A stretch of DNA of 64,000 bases. Source: a phage. The position numbers and the translations under genes are program-made. The stretch lies in sequence record PZ179882.1, one strand, 5' to 3'. Under the pieces are notes generated by a model that saw nothing but the letters and a program-made list of their open reading frames with translations, had not been told where the DNA came from and ran no database searches. Of this stretch, positions 1 to 61,396 are shown in pieces. Within the stretch, counting starts at the first letter, position 1, and every line of letters begins with the position of its first letter.

Positions 1-1185
1 TGATTCAAGAATAAATCCACCTGCTTTAGTAGGGTCTTTACGGTGAGGATAAATTCCTACAATTTTTAAATCAACATCAATTACTTCTTTAAATTTATAA
101 AGATTTTTTGAACGAGCATTTTCCCACAATCCATCGGTATTTTTGAGAATAATACCTTCAAGACCTTGGTCAATATATTTTTTATAAATTACCTTAGCTT
201 CATCTAGGTTATTTACTACTTGGTTTTCAATTAAAATTACTTTATCATATCCTGATGTCATTTGTTCTAGTTTAGAAAAACGTACATCATATTTTAAACG
301 AAACGCCGGAAGACCGTATATTTCTACCAACGGAACATAATCCCAGACCTGAAACTTCATGCATTTGGCTTCTTTTTCTGAAATAGTTCCCTTTAAAGAT
401 TTATTGGCGATTCCATTAGAAGCAGTACGAGATTCAGCTACTTCGGCAAACTCTTTAGCTTTACTATTTTCAGGAGCATCAAAAAGAAAATCTAGGCCTT
501 CTGGTTCCTTTTCAACTTGCTCATGGTATACCAATTCGCCATCGATTAACACGCCTTCTGGATGAATCTGGCGGGCTTCAGCAGTCATTTTGATTAACTC
601 TTCCTTAAGAAGATCTAATCCTAGGTATTCATTGCCAGCTCGCGATAAAAGACGAACATCATCTAATTCATCACCTCGGACTTCAGCAAAACACCGAGCT
701 CCATCTGCTTTTAACTGTGCAAAAGCTGGAAATTTTATATTCTTACTAATGCCTTTTTCATCATAAGAACTTGCCAGCATTTGAGGTTGTTCAGGAATTA
801 AACCTGGCCAAACTTTGTTTGCAATAGATACTGAAGCACCACATTCAAGGTCTCGCATCATAACTCGACGCAAAACTTCAACATCATCCTTTTTACCATC
901 GGTGATATAACCAGTTAATTCCTCAATTGCTGCATTGCCAGTTAATTTCCGAGTAGCTAACGTGAATTCAATGAAGTCAAGCATATCGGTAATAGTCAGC
1001 ATTCCAAAACTCTGGGTAGCAATACCAGGTTTAGGCCATTTCTTGATATAATACTGTAACCCACGAGAATAAGTCAGACGATATACTCGTTTAAGCAATT
1101 CATTATCTTTATTCTTTTCAAGAATTGCTTGCTTCTGTTTAGTTGATCCAATAGATGCTATTTCATTCAGAATTTTAAGAATCAT
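1..1185 (-). CDS. 30: ATP-dependent DNA ligase gp30, N-terminal ~395 codons (C-terminus lies beyond window start)
   Basis: Minus-strand ATG at 1185 reads MILKILNEIAS...; frame stays open to position 1 (…TKAGGFILES); matches T4 ligase from memory. Confidence 0.93.
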   Translation of the reverse strand, partial: MILKILNEIASIGSTKQKQAILEKNKDNELLKRVYRLTYSRGLQYYIKKWPKPGIATQSFGMLTITDMLDFIEFTLATRKLTGNAAIEELTGYITDGKKDDVEVLRRVMMRDLECGASVSIANKVWPGLIPEQPQMLASSYDEKGISKNIKFPAFAQLKADGARCFAEVRGDELDDVRLLSRAGNEYLGLDLLKEELIKMTAEARQIHPEGVLIDGELVYHEQVEKEPEGLDFLFDAPENSKAKEFAEVAESRTASNGIANKSLKGTISEKEAKCMKFQVWDYVPLVEIYGLPAFRLKYDVRFSKLEQMTSGYDKVILIENQVVNNLDEAKVIYKKYIDQGLEGIILKNTDGLWENARSKNLYKFKEVIDVDLKIVGIYPHRKDPTKAGGFILES

Positions 1186-1451
1186 TGCTCATCCTTCAAG
1201 GTTTGGTTTACAGCTCTATTATAAATCAATTCATCATTAAGCTCAGGCAAAGACCTATGATATGTAGTTCTAACTTTATTTCCTTGCATCCAGTGCTTGA
1301 CGTAAATGAAACCTTGCTCTACACATTTTTTAAAAATTCGTTCGTCTTTTTGAGCTCGGAATTCTGGATTGCATCTAAAAAATTGATTTACGTGACCGTA
1401 ATCACGTGTAGTATTACCTTCATTTTCATAAATAGTATGAACAACAAACAT
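1182..1451 (-). CDS. hypothetical protein, 89 aa (30.1 slot)
   Basis: Track ORF; stop overlaps ligase start; position matches T4 30.1. Confidence 0.55.
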   Translation of the reverse strand: MFVVHTIYENEGNTTRDYGHVNQFFRCNPEFRAQKDERIFKKCVEQGFIYVKHWMQGNKVRTTYHRSLPELNDELIYNRAVNQTLKDEQ

Positions 1452-2290
1452 TAGAATGCTCCTTGAAAAATATTATCACCACTAGTAGGTCTATTATACA
1501 AATACTCTATGCCACCAGGTTTAATATAGTTCCATGTCTGAAACGGATGTGTCTGATATGGATGATATGGATGATTATAAGGATTAAATCCAGGCGTTCT
1601 CCAGGTAGTATTCCAAGGAAAAGAATTGTTTTTAACCATTTTCTCAATTGCATCTTTTATAGCTTTTTCACTATCAAAACTTTCTTTATTTTCCTTTGAT
1701 GAAAAAAGCTTATTTTCTACATCATTCCATGTATAAACTCGCTGCGCAGTTTTTGGAATATTGTCACGCTCTCCTCGAGCCATCCAATAAACTGGAACAT
1801 TTAATATTTCACTCGCATGATCGCAGTGATGAGCGAGATCGTCAATATAACAAATTACGTTATATTTCTCTTTTGCCTTTTTGAACAGCTCTTCTTTTGA
1901 AGAATCATGACCACACATCATTACTTCTGAGAAGGCACCAGGAAAAAGAGCATTCAAATTAAATTGACGATTCAACAGAGCGTCAATAGAATCACCCAAT
2001 GCTGTAACAGCTACAAAATTATAATCTTCTTTTAATTTGTTAATTACACACAGGGCATCTTTATACGGAGACAAGTAACGAATAAAATCTGAACGATTGT
2101 ATTTTTCAATTAACTTGACGCCAAGTTCTTCGTCACAATTAAAGAGTTTACCAGGAGAAATAAATTTCTCATCTTGGATCATTTTTAAAATATGTTCTAA
2201 TGGAAGATTATATTTCTGAGCAAAATAAGGAAGGCCTGATTGCCAGCTTAAACATACTCCATCAATATCAGTTAAAATAGTAGGCTTCAT
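1451..2290 (-). CDS. HAD-superfamily phosphatase-like protein, 279 aa, with Pro/Tyr/His-rich C-terminal tail (30.2 slot)
   Basis: N-terminal ILTDIDGV motif (HAD motif I); C-terminal NPYNHPYHPYQTHPFQ low-complexity segment. Confidence 0.65.
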   Translation of the reverse strand: MKPTILTDIDGVCLSWQSGLPYFAQKYNLPLEHILKMIQDEKFISPGKLFNCDEELGVKLIEKYNRSDFIRYLSPYKDALCVINKLKEDYNFVAVTALGDSIDALLNRQFNLNALFPGAFSEVMMCGHDSSKEELFKKAKEKYNVICYIDDLAHHCDHASEILNVPVYWMARGERDNIPKTAQRVYTWNDVENKLFSSKENKESFDSEKAIKDAIEKMVKNNSFPWNTTWRTPGFNPYNHPYHPYQTHPFQTWNYIKPGGIEYLYNRPTSGDNIFQGAF

Positions 2291-2751: not shown

Positions 2752-2944
2752 TACTTATAATTTCAACATCAGCCCAATGACCATAGCAAGGAAGACGAAA
2801 TTCAACTGGCCAGTTAGGGTCCTTTTCTAATATAATAGACTTAACTTGTGGTTCTTCATGTTCATCGGTATACGGACCTTTATACGTTACTTTATATGTG
2901 ACCTTAATGTACTGAATTCCAAAAATCTTATTAATTATATTCAT
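2738..2944 (-). CDS. hypothetical protein, 68 aa
   Basis: Track ORF in head-to-tail chain of minus-strand genes. Confidence 0.5.
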   Translation of the reverse strand: MNIINKIFGIQYIKVTYKVTYKGPYTDEHEEPQVKSIILEKDPNWPVEFRLPCYGHWADVEIISIENV

Positions 2945-3138
2945 ACTAATTCCTTTAATCCATAGATAGGAGATAATTCATCACCCATACGAAGGTCTTC
3001 ATTTCCATCTACCCAGGAAACAATATAAGCCTCTTTTATTTGAACGTCTCTCCATTTAAATGCAGGCAAAACCTTAGAAATTAATCCAGGTATACCGACT
3101 CCCTTTAATTCAACAGTTTGACCCAAAAAGAATTTCAT
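2941..3138 (-). CDS. hypothetical protein, 65 aa
   Basis: Track ORF; 4-nt overlap with neighbours. Confidence 0.5.
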   Translation of the reverse strand: MKFFLGQTVELKGVGIPGLISKVLPAFKWRDVQIKEAYIVSWVDGNEDLRMGDELSPIYGLKELV

Positions 3139-3476
3139 TAGAACCTCATCTGAAATCCGTGCGATTTAACATTACCACCACCAATGTCAGAAATATTAAT
3201 TTCACGCGCAATTGAAGGGTCAATGTCAATTTCACGATTGAGTTTAATGATTGCTAGAGTATCACGTCCACTTACAGTACGGAACTCTAAAGGACATACT
3301 ACATTAACGTAGTTTTTAATCGATTCACTGGTAGGTTGCAAATGAGCAGGAAGGCCTTTAGGCGCCTTTGAGAAAACCACTTCACAGAAATTTTTGCGGG
3401 TATCAAAATAAGTAGTCATAAACATAGTATTTTCCTCAGTAAGGGGCCGAAGCCCCTGTTTTATTTTAAATATCAA
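3138..3476 (-). CDS. hypothetical protein, up to 112 aa (start may be internal Met at 3425)
   Basis: Track ORF; GAGGAAAA Shine-Dalgarno precedes internal ATG at 3425. Confidence 0.5.
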   Translation of the reverse strand: MIFKIKQGLRPLTEENTMFMTTYFDTRKNFCEVVFSKAPKGLPAHLQPTSESIKNYVNVVCPLEFRTVSGRDTLAIIKLNREIDIDPSIAREINISDIGGGNVKSHGFQMRF

Positions 3477-3843
3477 ATTCGTTAAGAACTACATCAAAGA
3501 TTGCTTCAAGATGCTCAGGTTTAGCTCTGTTACTCAGAATATGACGAATCCAAGTTTTAACAAGAAGCTTACGATTAACGCCATTCCAGCAAGGATGAGT
3601 CCCTAAATCACGTTGACGGAAATCATCATCTAGTGCGATTTTAAAAGAAGAACCTTCTTTCGTGATTGAAACCGTAATGCCATTTTCAAATCGCATATAA
3701 ACGTAGTTAGGAGTCATATACTGCTCAATTTCGCATACTGATCCATTTTGATGTTTCCAAAGGCAAATAGTATCAATAGAACCTGCAATACCGTTAGAAA
3801 CATATTTACGTTCAAAGTTAATGTAGTTCATTTTATTCTCCAA
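3466..3843 (-). CDS. hypothetical protein, 125 aa
   Basis: Track ORF. Confidence 0.55.
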   Translation of the reverse strand: MENKMNYINFERKYVSNGIAGSIDTICLWKHQNGSVCEIEQYMTPNYVYMRFENGITVSITKEGSSFKIALDDDFRQRDLGTHPCWNGVNRKLLVKTWIRHILSNRAKPEHLEAIFDVVLNEFDI

Positions 3844-4638: not shown

Positions 4639-4887
4639 TTACTTCAGTGTTACCACAAAGTGACGAACTGCTTTTCGTGCGGCAGAAGCCAGAGGCTTAG
4701 CATACTTAAGTTCATCTTTTTCCTGAAGCTCAGCAGCTAGTGCAGTTTGAGCAGGATTCAGATGTTTGAAATAACGCAGGATTTCAAGAGCTTCGGCTTC
4801 AACATCAATAGATGCGCCATAGTTTTCGTGACCATTATTCCATGCGTTTCGTTGCAGTTCAAGAGCGTGTTGTAATTGTTTAATCAT
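4639..4887 (-). CDS. rIII: rIII lysis-inhibition accessory protein, 82 aa
   Basis: 82-aa ORF between the 30.x genes and gene 31, exactly as in T4; sequence matches remembered rIII. Confidence 0.8.
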   Translation of the reverse strand: MIKQLQHALELQRNAWNNGHENYGASIDVEAEALEILRYFKHLNPAQTALAAELQEKDELKYAKPLASAARKAVRHFVVTLK

Positions 4888-5034
4888 TTAAAAATTCTCG
4901 TTAGAGATTAAAACTCGGTAGTCACGTTCTTCTGAATTTCATCTTCTTTCGACAGATCTCTCAGTTGTAGACTACCACATAGAATTGTTCGGTTAACTTA
5001 TTATTCCGACACCCAATTCATATTATTATTTATA

Positions 5035-16696: not shown

Positions 16697-17008
16697 TTAC
16701 ACCGCCATTTTTCCTTTAATAGGAGGGTGTGATTCGTAACCTTTAAGAACGAAATCTTTAGGCCTGAGTTTAAGAACATATTCCAATTGTTCTTTAGTAG
16801 AAAGATAGCGGAATTTATAAGGCAATCCGCCTATTACCAGTTCACAAAGCTCTTTAGGTTCACGACGCAAAATTTCTTTACATTGTTCTACGTGATTCAT
16901 ATAGATATGAGTATTACCGCCAGAAAATATCAAATCTCCAGGAATAAGATTACACATCTTAGCTACGATATGAACTAACGCAGCATATGATGCAATATTA
17001 AATGGAAG
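16697..17008 (-). CDS. td: thymidylate synthase, exon 2 (C-terminal 103 aa)
   Basis: Reads LPFNIASYAALVHIV…KGKMAV*; continues exon 1 across the intron; upstream ATG at 17009-17011 belongs to intron 3' end. Confidence 0.93.
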   Translation of the reverse strand, partial: LPFNIASYAALVHIVAKMCNLIPGDLIFSGGNTHIYMNHVEQCKEILRREPKELCELVIGGLPYKFRYLSTKEQLEYVLKLRPKDFVLKGYESHPPIKGKMAV

Positions 17009-18024
17009 CATTATGTTCAGATAAGGTCGTTAATCTTATCCCGGAATTATATCCAGCTGCATGTCACCATGCAGAGCAGACTATATCTCCAACTTGTTAA
17101 AGCAAGTTGTCTATCGTTTCGAGTCACTTGACCCTACTCCCTAAAGGGATAGTCGTTAGGCATTTATGTAGAACCAATTCCACTTATCAGATTTTACACG
17201 GTAAGTAACTAATCCGGATGAAATTTCAAAATGTCTAGCTGCATCAGCTGCACATTCAAAAATAACCCCATCACATGAAATCTTTTTAATATTACTAGGC
17301 TTTTTACCTTTCATCTTTTCTGATATTTTAGATTTAGTTTTGTCTGAATGCTTATGATTAAAGAATGAATTATTTTCACCTGAACGATTTCTGCATTTAC
17401 TACAAGTATAAGCAGAAGTTTGTATACGAACACCACATTCACAAAACTTATGGGTTTCTGGATTCCAACGCCCATTTTTGCTTCCGGGTTTACCGTAAAG
17501 AGCTTTCCGACCATCAAGGCCAAGCTTAAGCATCTTAGCTTTAACAGTTTCAGAGCGTTTCTTAATAATTTCTTCTTTTAATGGATGTACAGAATATGTA
17601 TCACCAAACGTTGCATCAGCAATATTGTATCCATTAATTTTAGAATTAAGCTCTTTAATCCAAAAATTTTCTCGTTCAATAATCAAATCTTTCTCATATG
17701 GAATTTCTTCCAAAATAGAGCATTCAAACACATTACCATGTTTGTTAAAAGACCTTTGAAGTTTTATAGAAGAATGGCATCCTTTTTCTAAATCTTTAAA
17801 ATGCCTCTTCCATCTCTTTTCAAAATCTTTAGCACTTCCTACATATACTTTATCGTTTAAAGTATTTTTAATCTGATAAATTCCACTTTTCATAAATACC
17901 TCTTTAAATATAAAGGTATTTATTAAAGGGTAGTCCTACAATTTAGCACGGGATTGTCTACTAGAGAGGTTCCCCGTTTAGATAGATTACAAGTATAAGT
18001 CACCTTATACTCAGGCCTCAATTA
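17009..18024 (-). mobile_element. group I self-splicing intron in td (1016 nt) carrying homing-endonuclease gene
   Basis: Minus strand begins UAAUUGAGGCCUGAGUAUAAGGUGACUUAUACUUGUAAUCUAUCUAAACGGGGAACC… directly after exon-1 …GGU, as in T4 td intron; ends …UAAUG before exon 2. Confidence 0.93.
17156..17893 (-). CDS. I-TevI: intron-encoded GIY-YIG homing endonuclease I-TevI, 245 aa
   Basis: MKSGIYQIKNTLNDKVYVGSAKDFEKRWKRH… GIY-YIG N-terminal domain, zinc finger and C-terminal DNA-binding domain; matches I-TevI. Confidence 0.93.
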   Translation of the reverse strand: MKSGIYQIKNTLNDKVYVGSAKDFEKRWKRHFKDLEKGCHSSIKLQRSFNKHGNVFECSILEEIPYEKDLIIERENFWIKELNSKINGYNIADATFGDTYSVHPLKEEIIKKRSETVKAKMLKLGLDGRKALYGKPGSKNGRWNPETHKFCECGVRIQTSAYTCSKCRNRSGENNSFFNHKHSDKTKSKISEKMKGKKPSNIKKISCDGVIFECAADAARHFEISSGLVTYRVKSDKWNWFYINA

Positions 18025-57302: not shown

Positions 57303-57539
57303 TTAACCATCTATTGCTGTAGGTGTGAACATTGCAGCATTCTTAGTTTTCCAATCAGCTGCATCAGAAACTACAGTAGAATATGCTGCCTTTTCTGACG
57401 GAAAGATTTGATAATGAGAATCTGCGATACGATGCTCGTTAGAATAAATTTCAAACGGAACAGAAACTTCCATACCTTTAACTTCTTTGCCTTCACCCGC
57501 TGGATGAGTAAAGGTCTTGATATTAACGAAACCACCCAT
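57303..57539 (-). CDS. soc: small outer capsid protein Soc homolog, 78 aa
   Basis: …VNIKTF…FPSEKAAYSTV… shared with T4 Soc; otherwise diverged. Confidence 0.8.
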   Translation of the reverse strand: MGGFVNIKTFTHPAGEGKEVKGMEVSVPFEIYSNEHRIADSHYQIFPSEKAAYSTVVSDAADWKTKNAAMFTPTAIDG

Positions 57540-57578: not shown

Positions 57579-57747
57579 TCAATCTTCAATGAAAACTTGT
57601 GCTAGGAATTCGTGTTCATCATGATTTGTTTATATAAAGCCATTATAGCATTTATATTAGAGCTATCTACTTTAAGTTGATAAGCATACCACTCGTGTAA
57701 ATTAATTAAAGCTTTTTGACGTCTAATAAGTTCTTCTTTGGATATTT

Positions 57748-57951
57748 TCATTTTGAATGCTCTATAATTAATTTTAAGGCTTCTTCACTGACAAAAATTT
57801 CATCAGGACCTTCTTCTACAACCCAATCAACCACACGAAGCTGATTAGATAAGAGCTCACATACGAGCTCTTTGTCATAATTTTTAAATAGCTGGTCAAT
57901 ACGTTTCTTACGGGCTTTCTTAAGCTGGCGTTTATTTAAACGAGTCATCAA
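57748..57951 (-). CDS. hypothetical basic protein, 67 aa
   Basis: Track ORF; ATGA overlap with gene 56 stop. Confidence 0.5.
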   Translation of the reverse strand: MMTRLNKRQLKKARKKRIDQLFKNYDKELVCELLSNQLRVVDWVVEEGPDEIFVSEEALKLIIEHSK

Positions 57952-58466
57952 TAACCTCGGTCTTGACGAGCGAAGTTTTCAGCATTTTTCAGATAATAAA
58001 GTTTAAAGATTTCTTCAGCCGTAAGACCGAGACCTTGGAACATATTAAGAACGAAATGAAGAATATCAATCATTTCAAATTTAATTTCCAACTGGTCTTG
58101 TGGAGACAAATCAGTAATTAGAGTTTCACGGCGTTCACCGTGTTGAGCTTTCCAAGGCTTCCATACAGCAGATGCATCTTTTTCACCATTGCTCATACCG
58201 CCAAGAGATGTCAGAAGTTCACGGAATTCATCGTCAATATAATCTTTCTGATTACGTAGCCAATCAACAACTTCACCTGCAGTAGCCAAATCATCAGGAT
58301 GACGGTTATATTCAGGTTTATCTTTAGCTAAACGAACCTGTAAAGATTTCTGCATATCAAGCATAACCTGCAGCGGGTCTTTTTCATCACCGAGAATATC
58401 CCAGTATTCGTTTTGAGCTTTATCAGCGCCTTCAATCAGTTGTGAACATTCATTAAAGTAAGCCAT
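57948..58466 (-). CDS. 56: dCTP pyrophosphatase (dCTPase-dUTPase) gp56, 172 aa
   Basis: MAYFNECSQLIEGADKAQNEYWDILGDEKDPL… MazG-like; start at Met 32 of track ORF. Confidence 0.85.
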   Translation of the reverse strand: MAYFNECSQLIEGADKAQNEYWDILGDEKDPLQVMLDMQKSLQVRLAKDKPEYNRHPDDLATAGEVVDWLRNQKDYIDDEFRELLTSLGGMSNGEKDASAVWKPWKAQHGERRETLITDLSPQDQLEIKFEMIDILHFVLNMFQGLGLTAEEIFKLYYLKNAENFARQDRGY

Positions 58467-58537
58467 TATTTTTCCTTTCAATTCATGGATTAGTAGATTA
58501 ATTATACAATAAATATATAAAGCAATAAGGAGGACAT

Positions 58538-58738
58538 ATGGTACAAAAATTAATGGCACTTGTTAATGCCATCAAAGGTAATAAGAAACGTATAGCTTTT
58601 ACTATTTCTGCTATGGTAGGAATTTTACTCTGGAACTTTATTTTATCACCAATTGCAATTGCGCATGGTGTTAATATTCCAGTAGTTACTCTTGATACAT
58701 TCGTAGATCTAGCATTTGCTTTAGTTGGGTTAATTTAA
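58538..58738 (+). CDS. small membrane protein, 66 aa, on the opposite strand to its neighbours
   Basis: Strong SD AAGGAGG 4 nt before ATG; hydrophobic TM segment; stop overlaps gene 61 stop convergently. Confidence 0.5.
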   Translation: MVQKLMALVNAIKGNKKRIAFTISAMVGILLWNFILSPIAIAHGVNIPVVTLDTFVDLAFALVGLI

Positions 58739-59763
58739 ATCTTGGCATATTTAGATAACCGCATTTTAGCCATTAACCCCTGGGCAATATTATTTTTCAT
58801 ATATTCCATAATTTGTTCAGGGGTTGCACCTTCCTTTCTAATCATATCATTAACATCTTTTGATTTCCAGGGAGATTTATCCCAAAACATAACCCTTTCT
58901 CCTGCATCAACTAATTTAGTCATTCGCTTGATAGTGTCAGGGTGACGAGGTTCATTATCTAAAACCCACACTCGTCTATCTTTAAATGGAACAACTTCTA
59001 GGTCTAATTGACCACCCGTAATAGCTATACCATTTTCAATAAAAAGTGAATCTATAGGTCCTTCTAGAACATATACATCGCCATCTTTAACTCGTTCGAC
59101 TCCATATATTTTTGTTGCCTCAGGATAAGCTTTGATGGTGATATATTTTTGAGGAGCATCTTTCTTTAATGCGCGTCCTTGAAAAGACTCAGCTTTTCCA
59201 TTAGCATTATAAATTGGAATAACAAGACGAGGCTCAGGTATTTCCTTTTTATATGTTCCTGGTGCTATGCTATTAACTAATTTAGGCCATTCAGTTGTAA
59301 ACCAAAGATATTTCCATTTATCCTTTGGAATGCAGCGAGCTTTTACGTATTTTATAATTGGATGGTCTTCCGCCAGTTTATCTAATCTAATGCATGACGG
59401 AAGAGATTTAATTATTTTCTTCTCAGGTTGTTTAGGAAGTTCTTTAGGTTTTTCTACTGGACGACTTTTACCTTTTTCTTTTCTTATTTCAAAGATATAC
59501 TCACGATATAAATCAGGTTCAAACTCCTTTAAATATATTCCTATTGGTGCATGATAGTTACAGTTATAACAGTGAATATTTCCTTCATTATTATCACCAT
59601 AATACCATCCACGGGCTTTATTTTGGTCGGTTTTTGAATCTCCACAAACAGGACATCTAAACCGTAATTTAAAAGTTGAACTATTATTTACTTGTGCGAA
59701 TTTAGGTAAATGAGCTAGCGCACGATATGCAAACTCATTATCAATCCAAGGTATTGATGACAT
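58735..59763 (-). CDS. 61: DNA primase gp61, 342 aa
   Basis: Zinc ribbon CPVCGDSK…HCYNCNYH and TOPRIM region; matches T4 gp61. Confidence 0.95.
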   Translation of the reverse strand: MSSIPWIDNEFAYRALAHLPKFAQVNNSSTFKLRFRCPVCGDSKTDQNKARGWYYGDNNEGNIHCYNCNYHAPIGIYLKEFEPDLYREYIFEIRKEKGKSRPVEKPKELPKQPEKKIIKSLPSCIRLDKLAEDHPIIKYVKARCIPKDKWKYLWFTTEWPKLVNSIAPGTYKKEIPEPRLVIPIYNANGKAESFQGRALKKDAPQKYITIKAYPEATKIYGVERVKDGDVYVLEGPIDSLFIENGIAITGGQLDLEVVPFKDRRVWVLDNEPRHPDTIKRMTKLVDAGERVMFWDKSPWKSKDVNDMIRKEGATPEQIMEYMKNNIAQGLMAKMRLSKYAKI

Positions 59764-59765
59764 TT

Positions 59766-59930
59766 TTACTCTTCTTTTTCTTTAGATTCCTCTTTTTTCT
59801 TTTTAGGAATCTGTTCAGGACCTTTATTTACTACAGCGCCTGACGTTGTTCCAGTGGAGATATTTTCAGGATTACCACCTGAATCTCCAGCTACCATATC
59901 TTCTTTAATAAATTCTTTATATGTTTTCAT
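59766..59930 (-). CDS. small hydrophilic Lys/Glu-rich protein, 54 aa
   Basis: AGAGG SD 5 nt before ATG; start abuts upstream stop, stop 2 nt before gene 61 ATG. Confidence 0.4.
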   Translation of the reverse strand: MKTYKEFIKEDMVAGDSGGNPENISTGTTSGAVVNKGPEQIPKKKKEESKEKEE

Positions 59931-59931
59931 A

Positions 59932-60288
59932 TTAACCTCTATTCATAAAAGCATTAAAAATTTGGTCATCAATCGATGGAATAGCAACCTTTTCGGCATC
60001 ATTTAGCAAATCATTAATTTCATCAGATAGCATAACGCATGTACCTTTATTTCCTGTAATTGTTACTGCGCAATTACGAACGTTTTCTTTATCAAATTTT
60101 AGGTTAATATTTTCGTAGTGAAAATCCTTTAATGCCGAATATATCTTTAAAATGAAATTGTCTTTTACTACAATAAAACCGACTTCACTGTTAAAACGCG
60201 GCTCATGAAAACTGTAATAAACCTTTTCATCTATAAAATCGTATGAAATTTTTTCCATTTTTAAATATGGAAATTCAGAACTATACAT
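59932..60288 (-). CDS. hypothetical protein, 118 aa
   Basis: Track ORF. Confidence 0.55.
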   Translation of the reverse strand: MYSSEFPYLKMEKISYDFIDEKVYYSFHEPRFNSEVGFIVVKDNFILKIYSALKDFHYENINLKFDKENVRNCAVTITGNKGTCVMLSDEINDLLNDAEKVAIPSIDDQIFNAFMNRG

Positions 60289-60300
60289 ATTAACCTCTAA

Positions 60301-60594
60301 TTATTCACCTACCACTTCAGCGATGATATTTTTATTATTGAAGTTTTTATCACAATACAGAACGTAATTATACTGCATTACACCACCAGACTTAAGCTGT
60401 TTTTGTACTTCAGCTTTCATTTCAGGGCGATCACGCTCAACGATATTCATAATATCTGCTTCAATCTGAGTTTCAACCTCAGTCTGATCTGCGGTCATAG
60501 ACCATTCACACAAATCTTTATCATAACCTGCCATAGCAGGCTGAGCAGCACAAGAAGCCAAAGCAAAAATTGCAGCAAAAACAAATTTTTTCAT
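60301..60594 (-). CDS. sp: Spackle periplasmic protein (superinfection exclusion / lysozyme inhibitor), 97 aa
   Basis: Cleavable signal peptide MKKFVFAAIFALASCAAQPAMA; 97 aa as T4 Sp; position between 61 and dmd. Confidence 0.75.
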   Translation of the reverse strand: MKKFVFAAIFALASCAAQPAMAGYDKDLCEWSMTADQTEVETQIEADIMNIVERDRPEMKAEVQKQLKSGGVMQYNYVLYCDKNFNNKNIIAEVVGE

Positions 60595-60651
60595 GATAAT
60601 CTCCTCAGTAGTTTATGTTTATATAATATCTCAATTTCCAACAAAAGTAAA

Positions 60652-60906
60652 CTATTTTATTTCCTCAAGTTCGTTAATCAATAAAAGTTCTCTGACGCTA
60701 AAAACAAAGAAAAATGTGTTCCCATCAACCAGAGCATGACCGCTAATAGAACACCCTCTGCGGAATTTAGAAACTTCACAATCTAGAACTGTAAAGGGTT
60801 TTAATCCTATGACTTTAGCTGTGCGTCTATTCAGTTCACAACCACTTGCGAATTTTTCCAAATCTTCTTCTGATTTAAACTGATATTCTCTATTAACTAG
60901 CATCAT
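60652..60906 (-). CDS. hypothetical protein, 84 aa
   Basis: Track ORF. Confidence 0.5.
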   Translation of the reverse strand: MMLVNREYQFKSEEDLEKFASGCELNRRTAKVIGLKPFTVLDCEVSKFRRGCSISGHALVDGNTFFFVFSVRELLLINELEEIK

Positions 60907-60969
60907 TTTCTTTTCTCCGCGATTAGCTGATAGAATTACTATAACACAACTCTATCAGCTTGTAAACTA

Positions 60970-61254
60970 CTATTTTACTAGCATCAATAACTGTTTCTCT
61001 AACTTGACGATTTTACGAAAGTATCTTTTGCATTGGCGAATCTGTCGCTTCGTAGGGCGCACAGCAAACTTAATAAATTCCACTCGACCAAATGGAGGAC
61101 TTTCTTCTGCTGGAATATCTAACACCAATTCCCACGTATCTGCAACAAGTGCTTTGAATTGAGTATTTTTCCTGACATTATACGGAGTAGGTTTAAATAA
61201 AACAATATGCATATTATCCTCGGCAATCCACTTCACATACTTTCTTGTCATCAA
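60970..61254 (-). CDS. hypothetical basic protein, up to 94 aa (start possibly Met 15 at 61212)
   Basis: Track ORF; 5' end overlaps dmd unless internal start used. Confidence 0.45.
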   Translation of the reverse strand: MMTRKYVKWIAEDNMHIVLFKPTPYNVRKNTQFKALVADTWELVLDIPAEESPPFGRVEFIKFAVRPTKRQIRQCKRYFRKIVKLEKQLLMLVK

Positions 61255-61396
61255 TGAAAGCTTTAACTAATGCTTTATTAACTTCAGCATATTGAGTAGT
61301 AGCCCATTGAACGTCATCTTTCATCATTGTGATTTCTTTAGTAAACATGCTTTCATTCTTAAACCACCCCATAAAAACTACCTTTACCAATTCCAT
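61214..61396 (-). CDS. dmd: Dmd antitoxin (inhibitor of host RnlA/LsoA RNases), 60 aa
   Basis: MELVKVVFMGWFKNESMFTKEITMMKDDVQW… 60 aa immediately downstream of gene 41 as in T4. Confidence 0.85.
   Translation of the reverse strand: MELVKVVFMGWFKNESMFTKEITMMKDDVQWATTQYAEVNKALVKAFIDDKKVCEVDCRG

Follow-up and report, generated by a model that had tools for sequence, protein, structure and literature searches.

The junction between genes 56 and 61

What occupies the short space between genes 56 and 61 of a T4-like phage when the dam gene, which T4 carries at this place, is absent? The question is raised by positions 58467 to 58738 of a 64,000-nucleotide stretch of phage DNA (sequence record PZ179882.1), which as a whole is referred to here as the window. 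The space contains a small open reading frame (ORF) of 66 amino acids (aa), at 58538..58738 on the plus strand, whose product has the sequence MVQKLMALVNAIKGNKKRIAFTISAMVGILLWNFILSPIAIAHGVNIPVVTLDTFVDLAFALVGLI. It is a small membrane-protein gene of the RB32ORF030w/RB69ORF029w family (phrog_2024). An earlier note on this DNA had suggested that it could be either a late-expressed membrane peptide or a cassette that stands in for dam, gene 69, and oriA. The ORF is best explained as a conserved Tevenvirinae gene that is convergent on the primase gene and most likely encodes a late, single-pass inner-membrane protein, a reading to which we give a probability of roughly three in four.

The window is a segment of a T4-like (Tequatrovirus) genome, and a 24-kb piece of it is 94-97% identical to many Tequatrovirus genomes. 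The earlier description of the junction is borne out by the sequence. Genes 56 and 61 are separated by 268 bp (58467..58734), and a 66-aa hydrophobic ORF at 58538..58738 is indeed encoded on the opposite strand. A strong Shine-Dalgarno (SD) sequence, AAGGAGG, is located at 58527..58533 on the plus strand and ends 4 nt ahead of the ATG. The TAA stop codon of the ORF (58736-58738) overlaps the stop codon of gene 61 (58735-58737). The start codons of gene 56 and the small ORF are separated by 71 bp.

Coding evidence and conservation

In DNA of 35% GC, the ORF list is full of spurious ORFs of 60-95 aa, and the length of an ORF is not significant by itself. The small ORF is held to be more than a chance frame because of its conservation, its SD sequence, and its promoter motif. 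The lineages examined were Tequatrovirus, Mosigvirus (including RB69), Gaprivervirus, Dhakavirus UP19, Marfavirus pzk-kv8, Klebsiella phage Roth76, Kanagawavirus CIP9 and PEi20, and Gelderlandvirus STML-198. The frame is open over 63-69 aa in every one of them, and GGAGG is conserved upstream of every homolog examined.

When the window is compared with Mosigvirus ZQ3 and Gaprivervirus DK-13 and TH40, the proportion of synonymous differences (pS) is 0.57-0.75, which is saturated, and the proportion of nonsynonymous differences (pN) is 0.31-0.35. The ratio of nonsynonymous to synonymous substitution rates (dN/dS) is 0.12-0.42 where it could be computed for these comparisons. Six residues are invariant across the genera (W32, N33, P38, G44, P48, and G64 in window numbering), and position 53 is always acidic, either Asp or Glu. 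Judged from these alignments, the ORF is under purifying selection at the protein level and, with high confidence, is a real gene.

The gene is already catalogued. The window protein matches phrog_2024 ('unknown function') with an E value of 1.5e-31, where residues 2-66 align to profile positions 1-65 of 65. It is identical to ACP30950.1 of phage RB51, which is annotated as 'RB32ORF030w hypothetical protein, similar to RB69ORF029w', and the same sequence is found on 154 contigs. RB69ORF029w and RB32ORF030w are the same gene, being alike in position, orientation, length, and predicted transmembrane (TM) segment, with no structural difference. The Mosigvirus versions are 49-55% identical to the window protein.

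A tblastn search with the window ORF matched 693 phage records. In 503 of these the identity is at least 90%, the Tequatrovirus level, and the remaining 190 are approximately 44-56% identical (Mosigvirus, Gaprivervirus). Searches with divergent types of the ORF matched a further 169 and 140 records, and the three sets overlap (e.g., ZQ3 and CF1 ERZ-2017). A profile search of 1.84 billion representatives gave seven matches, made up of six small family proteins or fragments and one likely spurious protein of 1822 aa. By these searches, the family is narrow and restricted to phages. The ORF has no paralog within the 64-kb window.

The position of the ORF is also conserved. It is convergent with the 3' end of primase gene 61 and lies upstream of gene 56 in the window, RB51, RB69, ZQ3, UP19, pzk-kv8, CIP9, and STML-198. 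Synteny convergent on gene 61 is observed in Tequatro-, Mosig-, Gapriver-, Dhaka-, Marfa-, Kanagawa-, and Gelderlandvirus and in the JD18-like Klebsiella phage Roth76. The ORF stands at the junction, of which it is an ancestral part, in at least nine Tevenvirinae genera, mostly without dam, and the 4-nt overlap of the stops is usual. In Roth76 the ORF and gene 61 do not overlap but are 18 nt apart. In Gaprivervirus DK-13, a homing endonuclease gene (2872..3621 of the extracted locus) is located between the ORF and gene 61; the overlap is broken and the ORF persists.

A 601-bp probe of the junction has matches in 702 phage records, and the compact junction is contiguous in at least 327 of them. 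On these counts, the compact junction is the dam-less state, which is the majority state among Tequatroviruses, and the small ORF is an already catalogued hypothetical gene whose dam-less junction is very common. The record is thus to be corrected from a novel cassette to the normal dam-less Tequatrovirus arrangement. Beyond the catalogued family, the sequence comparisons add the T4 copy, the spread to Dhaka-, Marfa-, Kanagawa-, and Gelderlandvirus and to JD18-like Klebsiella phages, and the late-promoter core. The novelty is mild and is confined to the gap in the T4 annotation, the conservation of that core across genera, and the adjacent cargo hotspot.

The copy in phage T4

T4 itself encodes the ORF, at 17738..17938 on the plus strand (4739..4939 of the extracted locus), and 64 of its 66 aa are identical to those of the window ORF. 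In T4, a 309-bp 'empty' space separates dam from gene 61; the ORF lies within it and, as in the window, overlaps gene 61 by 4 nt. It has no coding sequence feature in NC_000866 or AF158101, and the exact T4 protein is absent from NCBI and UniProt records. The ORF is likewise unannotated in IME08, VR7, SP18, PEi20, and AnYang, where tblastn matches fall on DNA with no feature. T4 is the best-studied phage, and its reference annotation omits a conserved, apparently late gene that is under purifying selection. Because the ORF is unannotated there, omics studies and knock-down screens that start from the annotation may never have included it.

In the corresponding region of T4 (NC_000866 16270..18963), genes 56 and 61, the MotA middle promoter/oriA, and the small ORF are all shared with the window and are 92-98% alike. 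The gene order is 56, dam, ORF, 61 in T4 and 56, ORF, 61 in the window. The T4 region differs by a dam cassette of approximately 0.87 kb, which is bounded exactly by the MotA box of P_M(56), the gene 56 promoter, on one side and by the late-promoter box of the ORF on the other; these boundaries were read by eye from the two sequences. In the window, which has no such cassette, the late box falls within the spacer of the middle promoter.

The earlier note had also placed gene 69 in this interval and counted oriA as missing, and neither statement holds. The 'gene 69' of the 1984 record X01416 (1548..2726) corresponds to today's gene 56 plus segF and is located downstream of dam, across the gene 56 promoter from this interval; it was never between genes 56 and 61. 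oriA is annotated at T4 position 16763, inside the 5' end of gene 56, and the window keeps both this end of the gene and the middle promoter. In the T4 annotation, the oriA primer is the transcript from the MotA-dependent middle promoter.

Promoters and timing of expression

The junction contains a MotA-type middle promoter of gene 56 at 58501..58526 on the minus strand, which corresponds to T4 P_M 16.53, the promoter of the oriA primer. The element was read from the sequence and its function is presumed. It is composed of the MotA box ATTGCTTTA (58518-58526), an 11-nt spacer, and TATAAT (58501-58506). The annotations of SA20RB and fPS-65 mark the equivalent element as a middle promoter, and X01416 lists it as the mot-box/-10 of P(M) 16.53.

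On the plus strand, a putative late-promoter box, AATAAATA, is found at 58508..58515, 22 nt upstream of the ATG of the ORF. It is identified by sequence match as an A(-13) variant of TATAAATA. T4-type late promoters have this box at -13..-6 and need no -35 element, and late transcripts arise only once DNA has replicated and depend on gp55/gp33/gp45. Transcription is predicted to start at approximately 58521, giving a 17-nt leader. An xxTAAATA core is present 12-23 nt upstream of the start codon in 11 of 11 lineages, with differing flanks, and GGAGG always follows. The box reads GATAAATA in T4 and fPS-65, AATAAATA in Mosigvirus and Dhakavirus, CATAAATA in Gaprivervirus, Roth76, and PEi20, and the perfect TATAAATA in Marfavirus and CIP9. 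A(-13) is the commonest natural variant in T4, occurring in 9 of 50 listed T4 late promoters (PMC2988020), and position -13 is poorly conserved in T4 relatives (Nolan et al.).

The strand of the ORF is consistent with late expression. Early and middle T4 transcripts are all of opposite polarity to it (PMC2988020). Over the first 50 kb of RB51, the plus strand carries only this ORF and one homing endonuclease gene. Between 38 and 64 kb of the window, it is the sole plus-strand ORF of at least 50 aa with a WATAAATA-type motif no more than 45 nt upstream. The motif WATAAATA itself occurs at 11 sites on both strands of the window; shuffled sequences give an expectation of 22.4, and 99 of 100 of them contain no fewer sites than the window. 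This scarcity suggests selection against stray late promoters. The earlier description of the product as late-expressed therefore gains indirect support from the plus-strand position, set against the early/middle strand, and from the conserved TAAATA core and the SD sequence; late timing stands as a prediction. Because the late box overlaps the spacer of the opposite-strand middle promoter, approximately 30 bp would serve middle transcription in one direction and late transcription in the other.

A terminator-like hairpin was detected by a scan of the minus strand at 58540..58575. It has an 11-bp stem, TTGATGGCATTAACAAGTGCCATTAA, followed by TTTTTGT, with a folding energy of -14 kcal/mol and a z score of -2.7, and it falls within codons 5-13 of the ORF. 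Terminators are annotated at the corresponding place in fPS-65 and SA20RB, and the transcript of gene 61 probably ends at the hairpin. In Mosigvirus ZQ3, the sequence of which was read by eye, the hairpin is seemingly not conserved, and it would therefore not explain conservation at the protein level. The terminator scan found no plus-strand terminator downstream of the ORF (fold z score -0.1), so a late transcript would run antisense into gene 61.

Predicted architecture of the protein

The AlphaFold2 model has a mean predicted local distance difference test (pLDDT) score of 79 and contains helices at residues 2-12, 16-42, and 52-63, with a loop before the C-terminal helix. A single TM helix is predicted, as the model helix 16-42 and the Kyte-Doolittle profile are in agreement. 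For RB69ORF029w, one TM segment at 21-41 and no signal peptide were predicted (Nolan et al.). In all homologs the N-terminal segment has a net charge of +1 to +6 and the C-terminal segment a net charge of 0 to -2. Under the positive-inside rule, this distribution points to an N-in/C-out topology. To this extent the membrane part of the earlier description stands, with one predicted TM helix and charges that fit the rule.

The predicted layout is a cytoplasmic, basic, amphipathic N-terminus, a TM helix at approximately 16-42, and a short periplasmic-side C-terminus with a hydrophobic helix at 52-63. The best-conserved part is the outer half of the TM helix together with the loop that follows, with the pattern W-N-[FLY]-x3-P-x5-G-x3-P-x-[VIM]-x-[LMIF]-[DE]. 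Two homologs carry functional names, 'Holin' in UniRef (OE5505 A0A482MZV5) and 'putative head morphogenesis protein' (BW-1), and both were treated as unsupported automatic names.

Proposed role

A role for the protein can be proposed from these features. RNA polymerase with gp55 would start at AATAAATA, late only, and the transcript would be translated by means of the strong SD sequence. The box would stand back to back, within approximately 30 bp, with the MotA-dependent middle (oriA) promoter of gene 56. The product would be a single-pass inner-membrane protein of 63-69 aa with the invariant W-N...P motif in its TM helix. Its C-terminal segment (G...P...[D/E]..., then the hydrophobic helix) would face the periplasm or the outer leaflet. 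Late in infection, the conserved TM/periplasmic motif would be the site at which the protein binds a larger partner in the envelope or inner membrane. Binding would tune an envelope process, e.g., lysis timing or membrane integrity, with no hole formed by the protein itself. This mechanism is tentative, and we hold it with low confidence. The sequences show that the gene is real, conserved, and syntenic and that dam is absent; its late timing, topology, and function are inferred.

Small single-pass regulators such as MgrB, SafA, and AcrZ act by binding a larger membrane protein. They resemble the ORF product in size, in their N-in/C-out single TM helix, and in a short conserved periplasmic/TM motif, but they have no sequence relationship to it; the analogy is one of architecture. 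The T4 proteins Imm, Sp, RI, and Ac are likewise small phage envelope proteins, and in RB69 sp and imm are located a few genes from the ORF. Their genes, however, lie on the early/middle strand and are unrelated to the ORF in sequence.

The proposal can be widened to an overlooked late inner-membrane protein in T4 and approximately 1000 relatives, whose W-N...P...G...P...[D/E] motif would bind an envelope component, which would thereby have a hitherto unrecognised part in a classic late T-even phenotype, and whose promoter would form, with oriA, a time-switched bidirectional pair. Taken as a whole, this wider proposal is doubtful. If it is true, candidate phenotypes are lysis timing, lysis inhibition, membrane integrity, and late superinfection behaviour.

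Several observations weigh against the reading as a late inner-membrane protein gene. Scans of three family members against Pfam, NCBIfam, and PADLOC gave no match and no homolog with a known function. A sequence profile search of the PDB gave only a chance match (E value 1.2). Foldseek returned 0 matches in the PDB and, in BFVD, only family members and noise. The profile search of 1.84 billion representatives likewise gave no distant homolog of known function. With no such homolog, the functional part of the reading rests on architecture. The ORF is also absent from Karamvirus AS6, Krischvirus Brandy, Slopekvirus phiKp_20, and Tulanevirus AhMtk13a, and is therefore dispensable there.

The evidence for late timing has its own counterweights. 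The box in STML-198 is ATTAAATA, and most lineages have A, G, or C at -13, so the late promoter may be weak. The list of RB69 late promoters based on a hidden Markov model (HMM) contains no site upstream of RB69ORF029w (Nolan et al. 2006). No transcript, ribosome-profiling, or proteomic evidence for the ORF was found in the literature, the T4 table of transcription start sites (TSSs) from differential RNA sequencing (dRNA-seq) being outside the search. No characterisation of the ORF was found in literature on the ORF names, T4 unannotated small proteins, or T4 TSS maps. Finally, since the minus-strand terminator covers codons 5-13, part of the nucleotide conservation in Tequatrovirus could serve gene 61.

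Alternative explanations

The suggestion that the ORF is an insertion that took over the place of dam, gene 69, and oriA started from a true contrast, as T4 has dam in the interval and the window does not. It is refuted by the T4 reference, which holds both genes; because the T4 ORF stands beside dam, it is no substitute for it. Phages fPS-65, PD112, and vb_GEC_SH_GT also carry both. The distribution over at least nine mostly dam-less genera, the obsolete reading of gene 69 as what is now 56 plus segF, and the retained oriA/middle promoter argue in the same direction, and the probability left to replacement is close to nil. Equally, the 268 bp could consist of no more than the 3' untranslated region (UTR) and terminator of gene 61 and the promoter of gene 56, with a frame that is accidental or kept for RNA or DNA signals. 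The terminator-like minus-strand hairpin inside the ORF, the omission of the ORF from the T4 reference and several other annotations, and the abundance of chance ORFs of similar size in AT-rich phage DNA would all fit such a frame. It would not be expected to stay open over 63-69 aa despite synonymous saturation, with pN about half of pS and an invariant W-N/P/G/P/G series, nor to keep its SD sequence and start codon everywhere examined. The apparent lack of the hairpin in Mosigvirus (ZQ3) and the persistence of the ORF in DK-13, where the homing endonuclease gene parts it from gene 61, also speak for a protein-coding gene, and a spurious frame is very improbable.

If the frame is a gene, its product could be a lysis protein proper, one of the small holins, pinholins, or antiholins by which lesions in the membrane are made or gated in late infection. 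A holin is marked by at least two TM domains or a signal-anchor-release (SAR) domain, by a hydrophilic, highly charged tail at the C-terminus, and by a gene within a lysis cassette. Like the class II holins and pinholins (phage 21 S68, approximately 65-70 aa), which are late inner-membrane proteins, the ORF product is small, probably late, and membrane-embedded, the Mosigvirus TM helix is fairly rich in Ala, Gly, and Ser, and one UniRef entry bears the name 'Holin'. That name is an automatic label on one of approximately 1000 homologs, the others being 'hypothetical protein', and no holin family in Pfam or PHROGs is matched. A single clear TM helix (16-42) is predicted, together with a C-terminal helix of 12 residues. 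In contrast to S68-type holins, its N-terminus is basic, its C-terminus is hydrophobic with a net charge of 0 to -2 and no basic or charged hydrophilic tail, and its gene is beside the primase gene. It is not beside the endolysin gene: in RB51, e, t, rI, rIII, and pseT.2/.3 are 40-145 kb away, and these phages already encode holin T, the antiholins RI and RIII, and the spanins PseT.3/PseT.2 elsewhere. A true holin is unlikely. The locus could instead act mainly as RNA, with a late plus-strand transcript running antisense into gene 61 to shut off primase mRNA, or with the gene 61 3' UTR silencing the ORF early, as in type I toxin-antitoxin systems, the peptide being secondary. Most genera retain the convergent overlap of 4 nt with gene 61, no plus-strand terminator was found after the ORF, and the gene 61 transcript up to its terminator (58575..58540) would be complementary to nearly the whole ORF. 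No dedicated antisense RNA is evident at the ORF. The gap in Roth76 and the intervening gene in DK-13 show that the overlap is not obligatory. An RNA-level role cannot explain the constraint seen at the protein level. As the principal function it is quite unlikely, and it may exist on gene 61 mRNA alongside the function of the protein.

dam and the cargo slot

The presence of dam between genes 56 and 61 in T4, stated in the earlier note, is confirmed in the T4 reference. Its absence from the window is likewise correct, the best match of T4 Dam to the 64-kb window by tblastn having an E value of 1.4. Phage RB51 shares the compact junction and the exact ORF protein, and its complete genome (168,394 bp) contains no Dam homolog (best tblastn E value 0.78) and no annotated methyltransferase. 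Only 182 records contain a T4-type Dam of at least 90% identity, versus 503 Tequatrovirus-level matches of the ORF.

GATC is approximately 2.7-fold under-represented in the window, with 77 sites observed versus 208 expected from base composition. The dam-less RB51 has 195 observed versus 546 expected on the same basis.

Sequence comparison identifies the slot between the small ORF and gene 56 as a cargo hotspot. In fPS-65 it holds dam and a 186-aa ORF (841..1401 of the extracted locus) that overlaps dam by 1 nt. Many dam-carrying Tequatroviruses have a second gene between dam and the small ORF, and in phage Shinka the feature adjoining dam is annotated 'putative restriction endonuclease'. If the 186-aa ORF of fPS-65 is the same gene as that of Shinka, it could form with dam a phage-borne methylase-nuclease pair.

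In Karamvirus, Marfavirus, and Kanagawavirus, the slot beside gene 56 holds a gene of 93-97 aa that is MazG-like on a reading of its sequence. Its coordinates in the extracted loci of these genera are 3023..3307 (L010), 3240..3521 (L014), 1170..1457 (L022), and 1150..1443 (L024). PEi20 annotates its copy as a nucleoside triphosphate pyrophosphohydrolase, and the product of gene 56 is likewise a pyrophosphohydrolase. In Karamvirus AS6, the MazG-like gene is present and the small membrane ORF is absent. The Marfavirus slot also holds a 248-aa protein with a signal-peptide-like N-terminus; it was considered as a Dam and rejected (blastp E value 0.035).

The dam coordinates of RB16/leN and Phi1, which belong to other T4-like genera, are far from the primase gene in the same or related genomes, which suggests that dam is not at the 56-61 junction there. 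The contents of the slot are useful for comparing T-even genomes and for reasoning on GATC methylation in phages.

Neighbouring genes in the window

Gene 56, encoding the dCTPase/dUTPase, is located at 57948..58466 on the minus strand. It was taken from the ORF list, matches Pfam dUTPase_2 and phrog_173, and is annotated as gene 56 in RB51 and T4. Its ATG is at 58464-58466, and its 5' end is the counterpart of the oriA position in T4. Gene 61, encoding the DNA primase, is located at 58735..59763 on the minus strand and is assigned from the ORF list, family matches, and the RB51 annotation; it is the gene with which the small ORF is convergent, with a 4-nt overlap.

Two small minus-strand ORFs are found at 57602..57951, between soc (57303..57539) and gene 56. 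One encodes 49 aa (phrog_9053) and the other 66-67 aa (phrog_5782, 'virion structural protein'). They stand at the place of the homing endonuclease gene segF in T4; RB51 has only a 68-bp gap there, and SA20RB has a similar pair.

The region between genes 61 and 41, at 59766..61396 on the minus strand, has a gene content unlike that of both T4 and RB51. After 61.1 come a 118-aa RB32ORF033c-like ORF (59932..60288) and, immediately next to it, sp (60301..60594), so that 61.2 is seemingly missing. An additional ORF of approximately 90 aa (60970..61254) is found between 61.4 and dmd.

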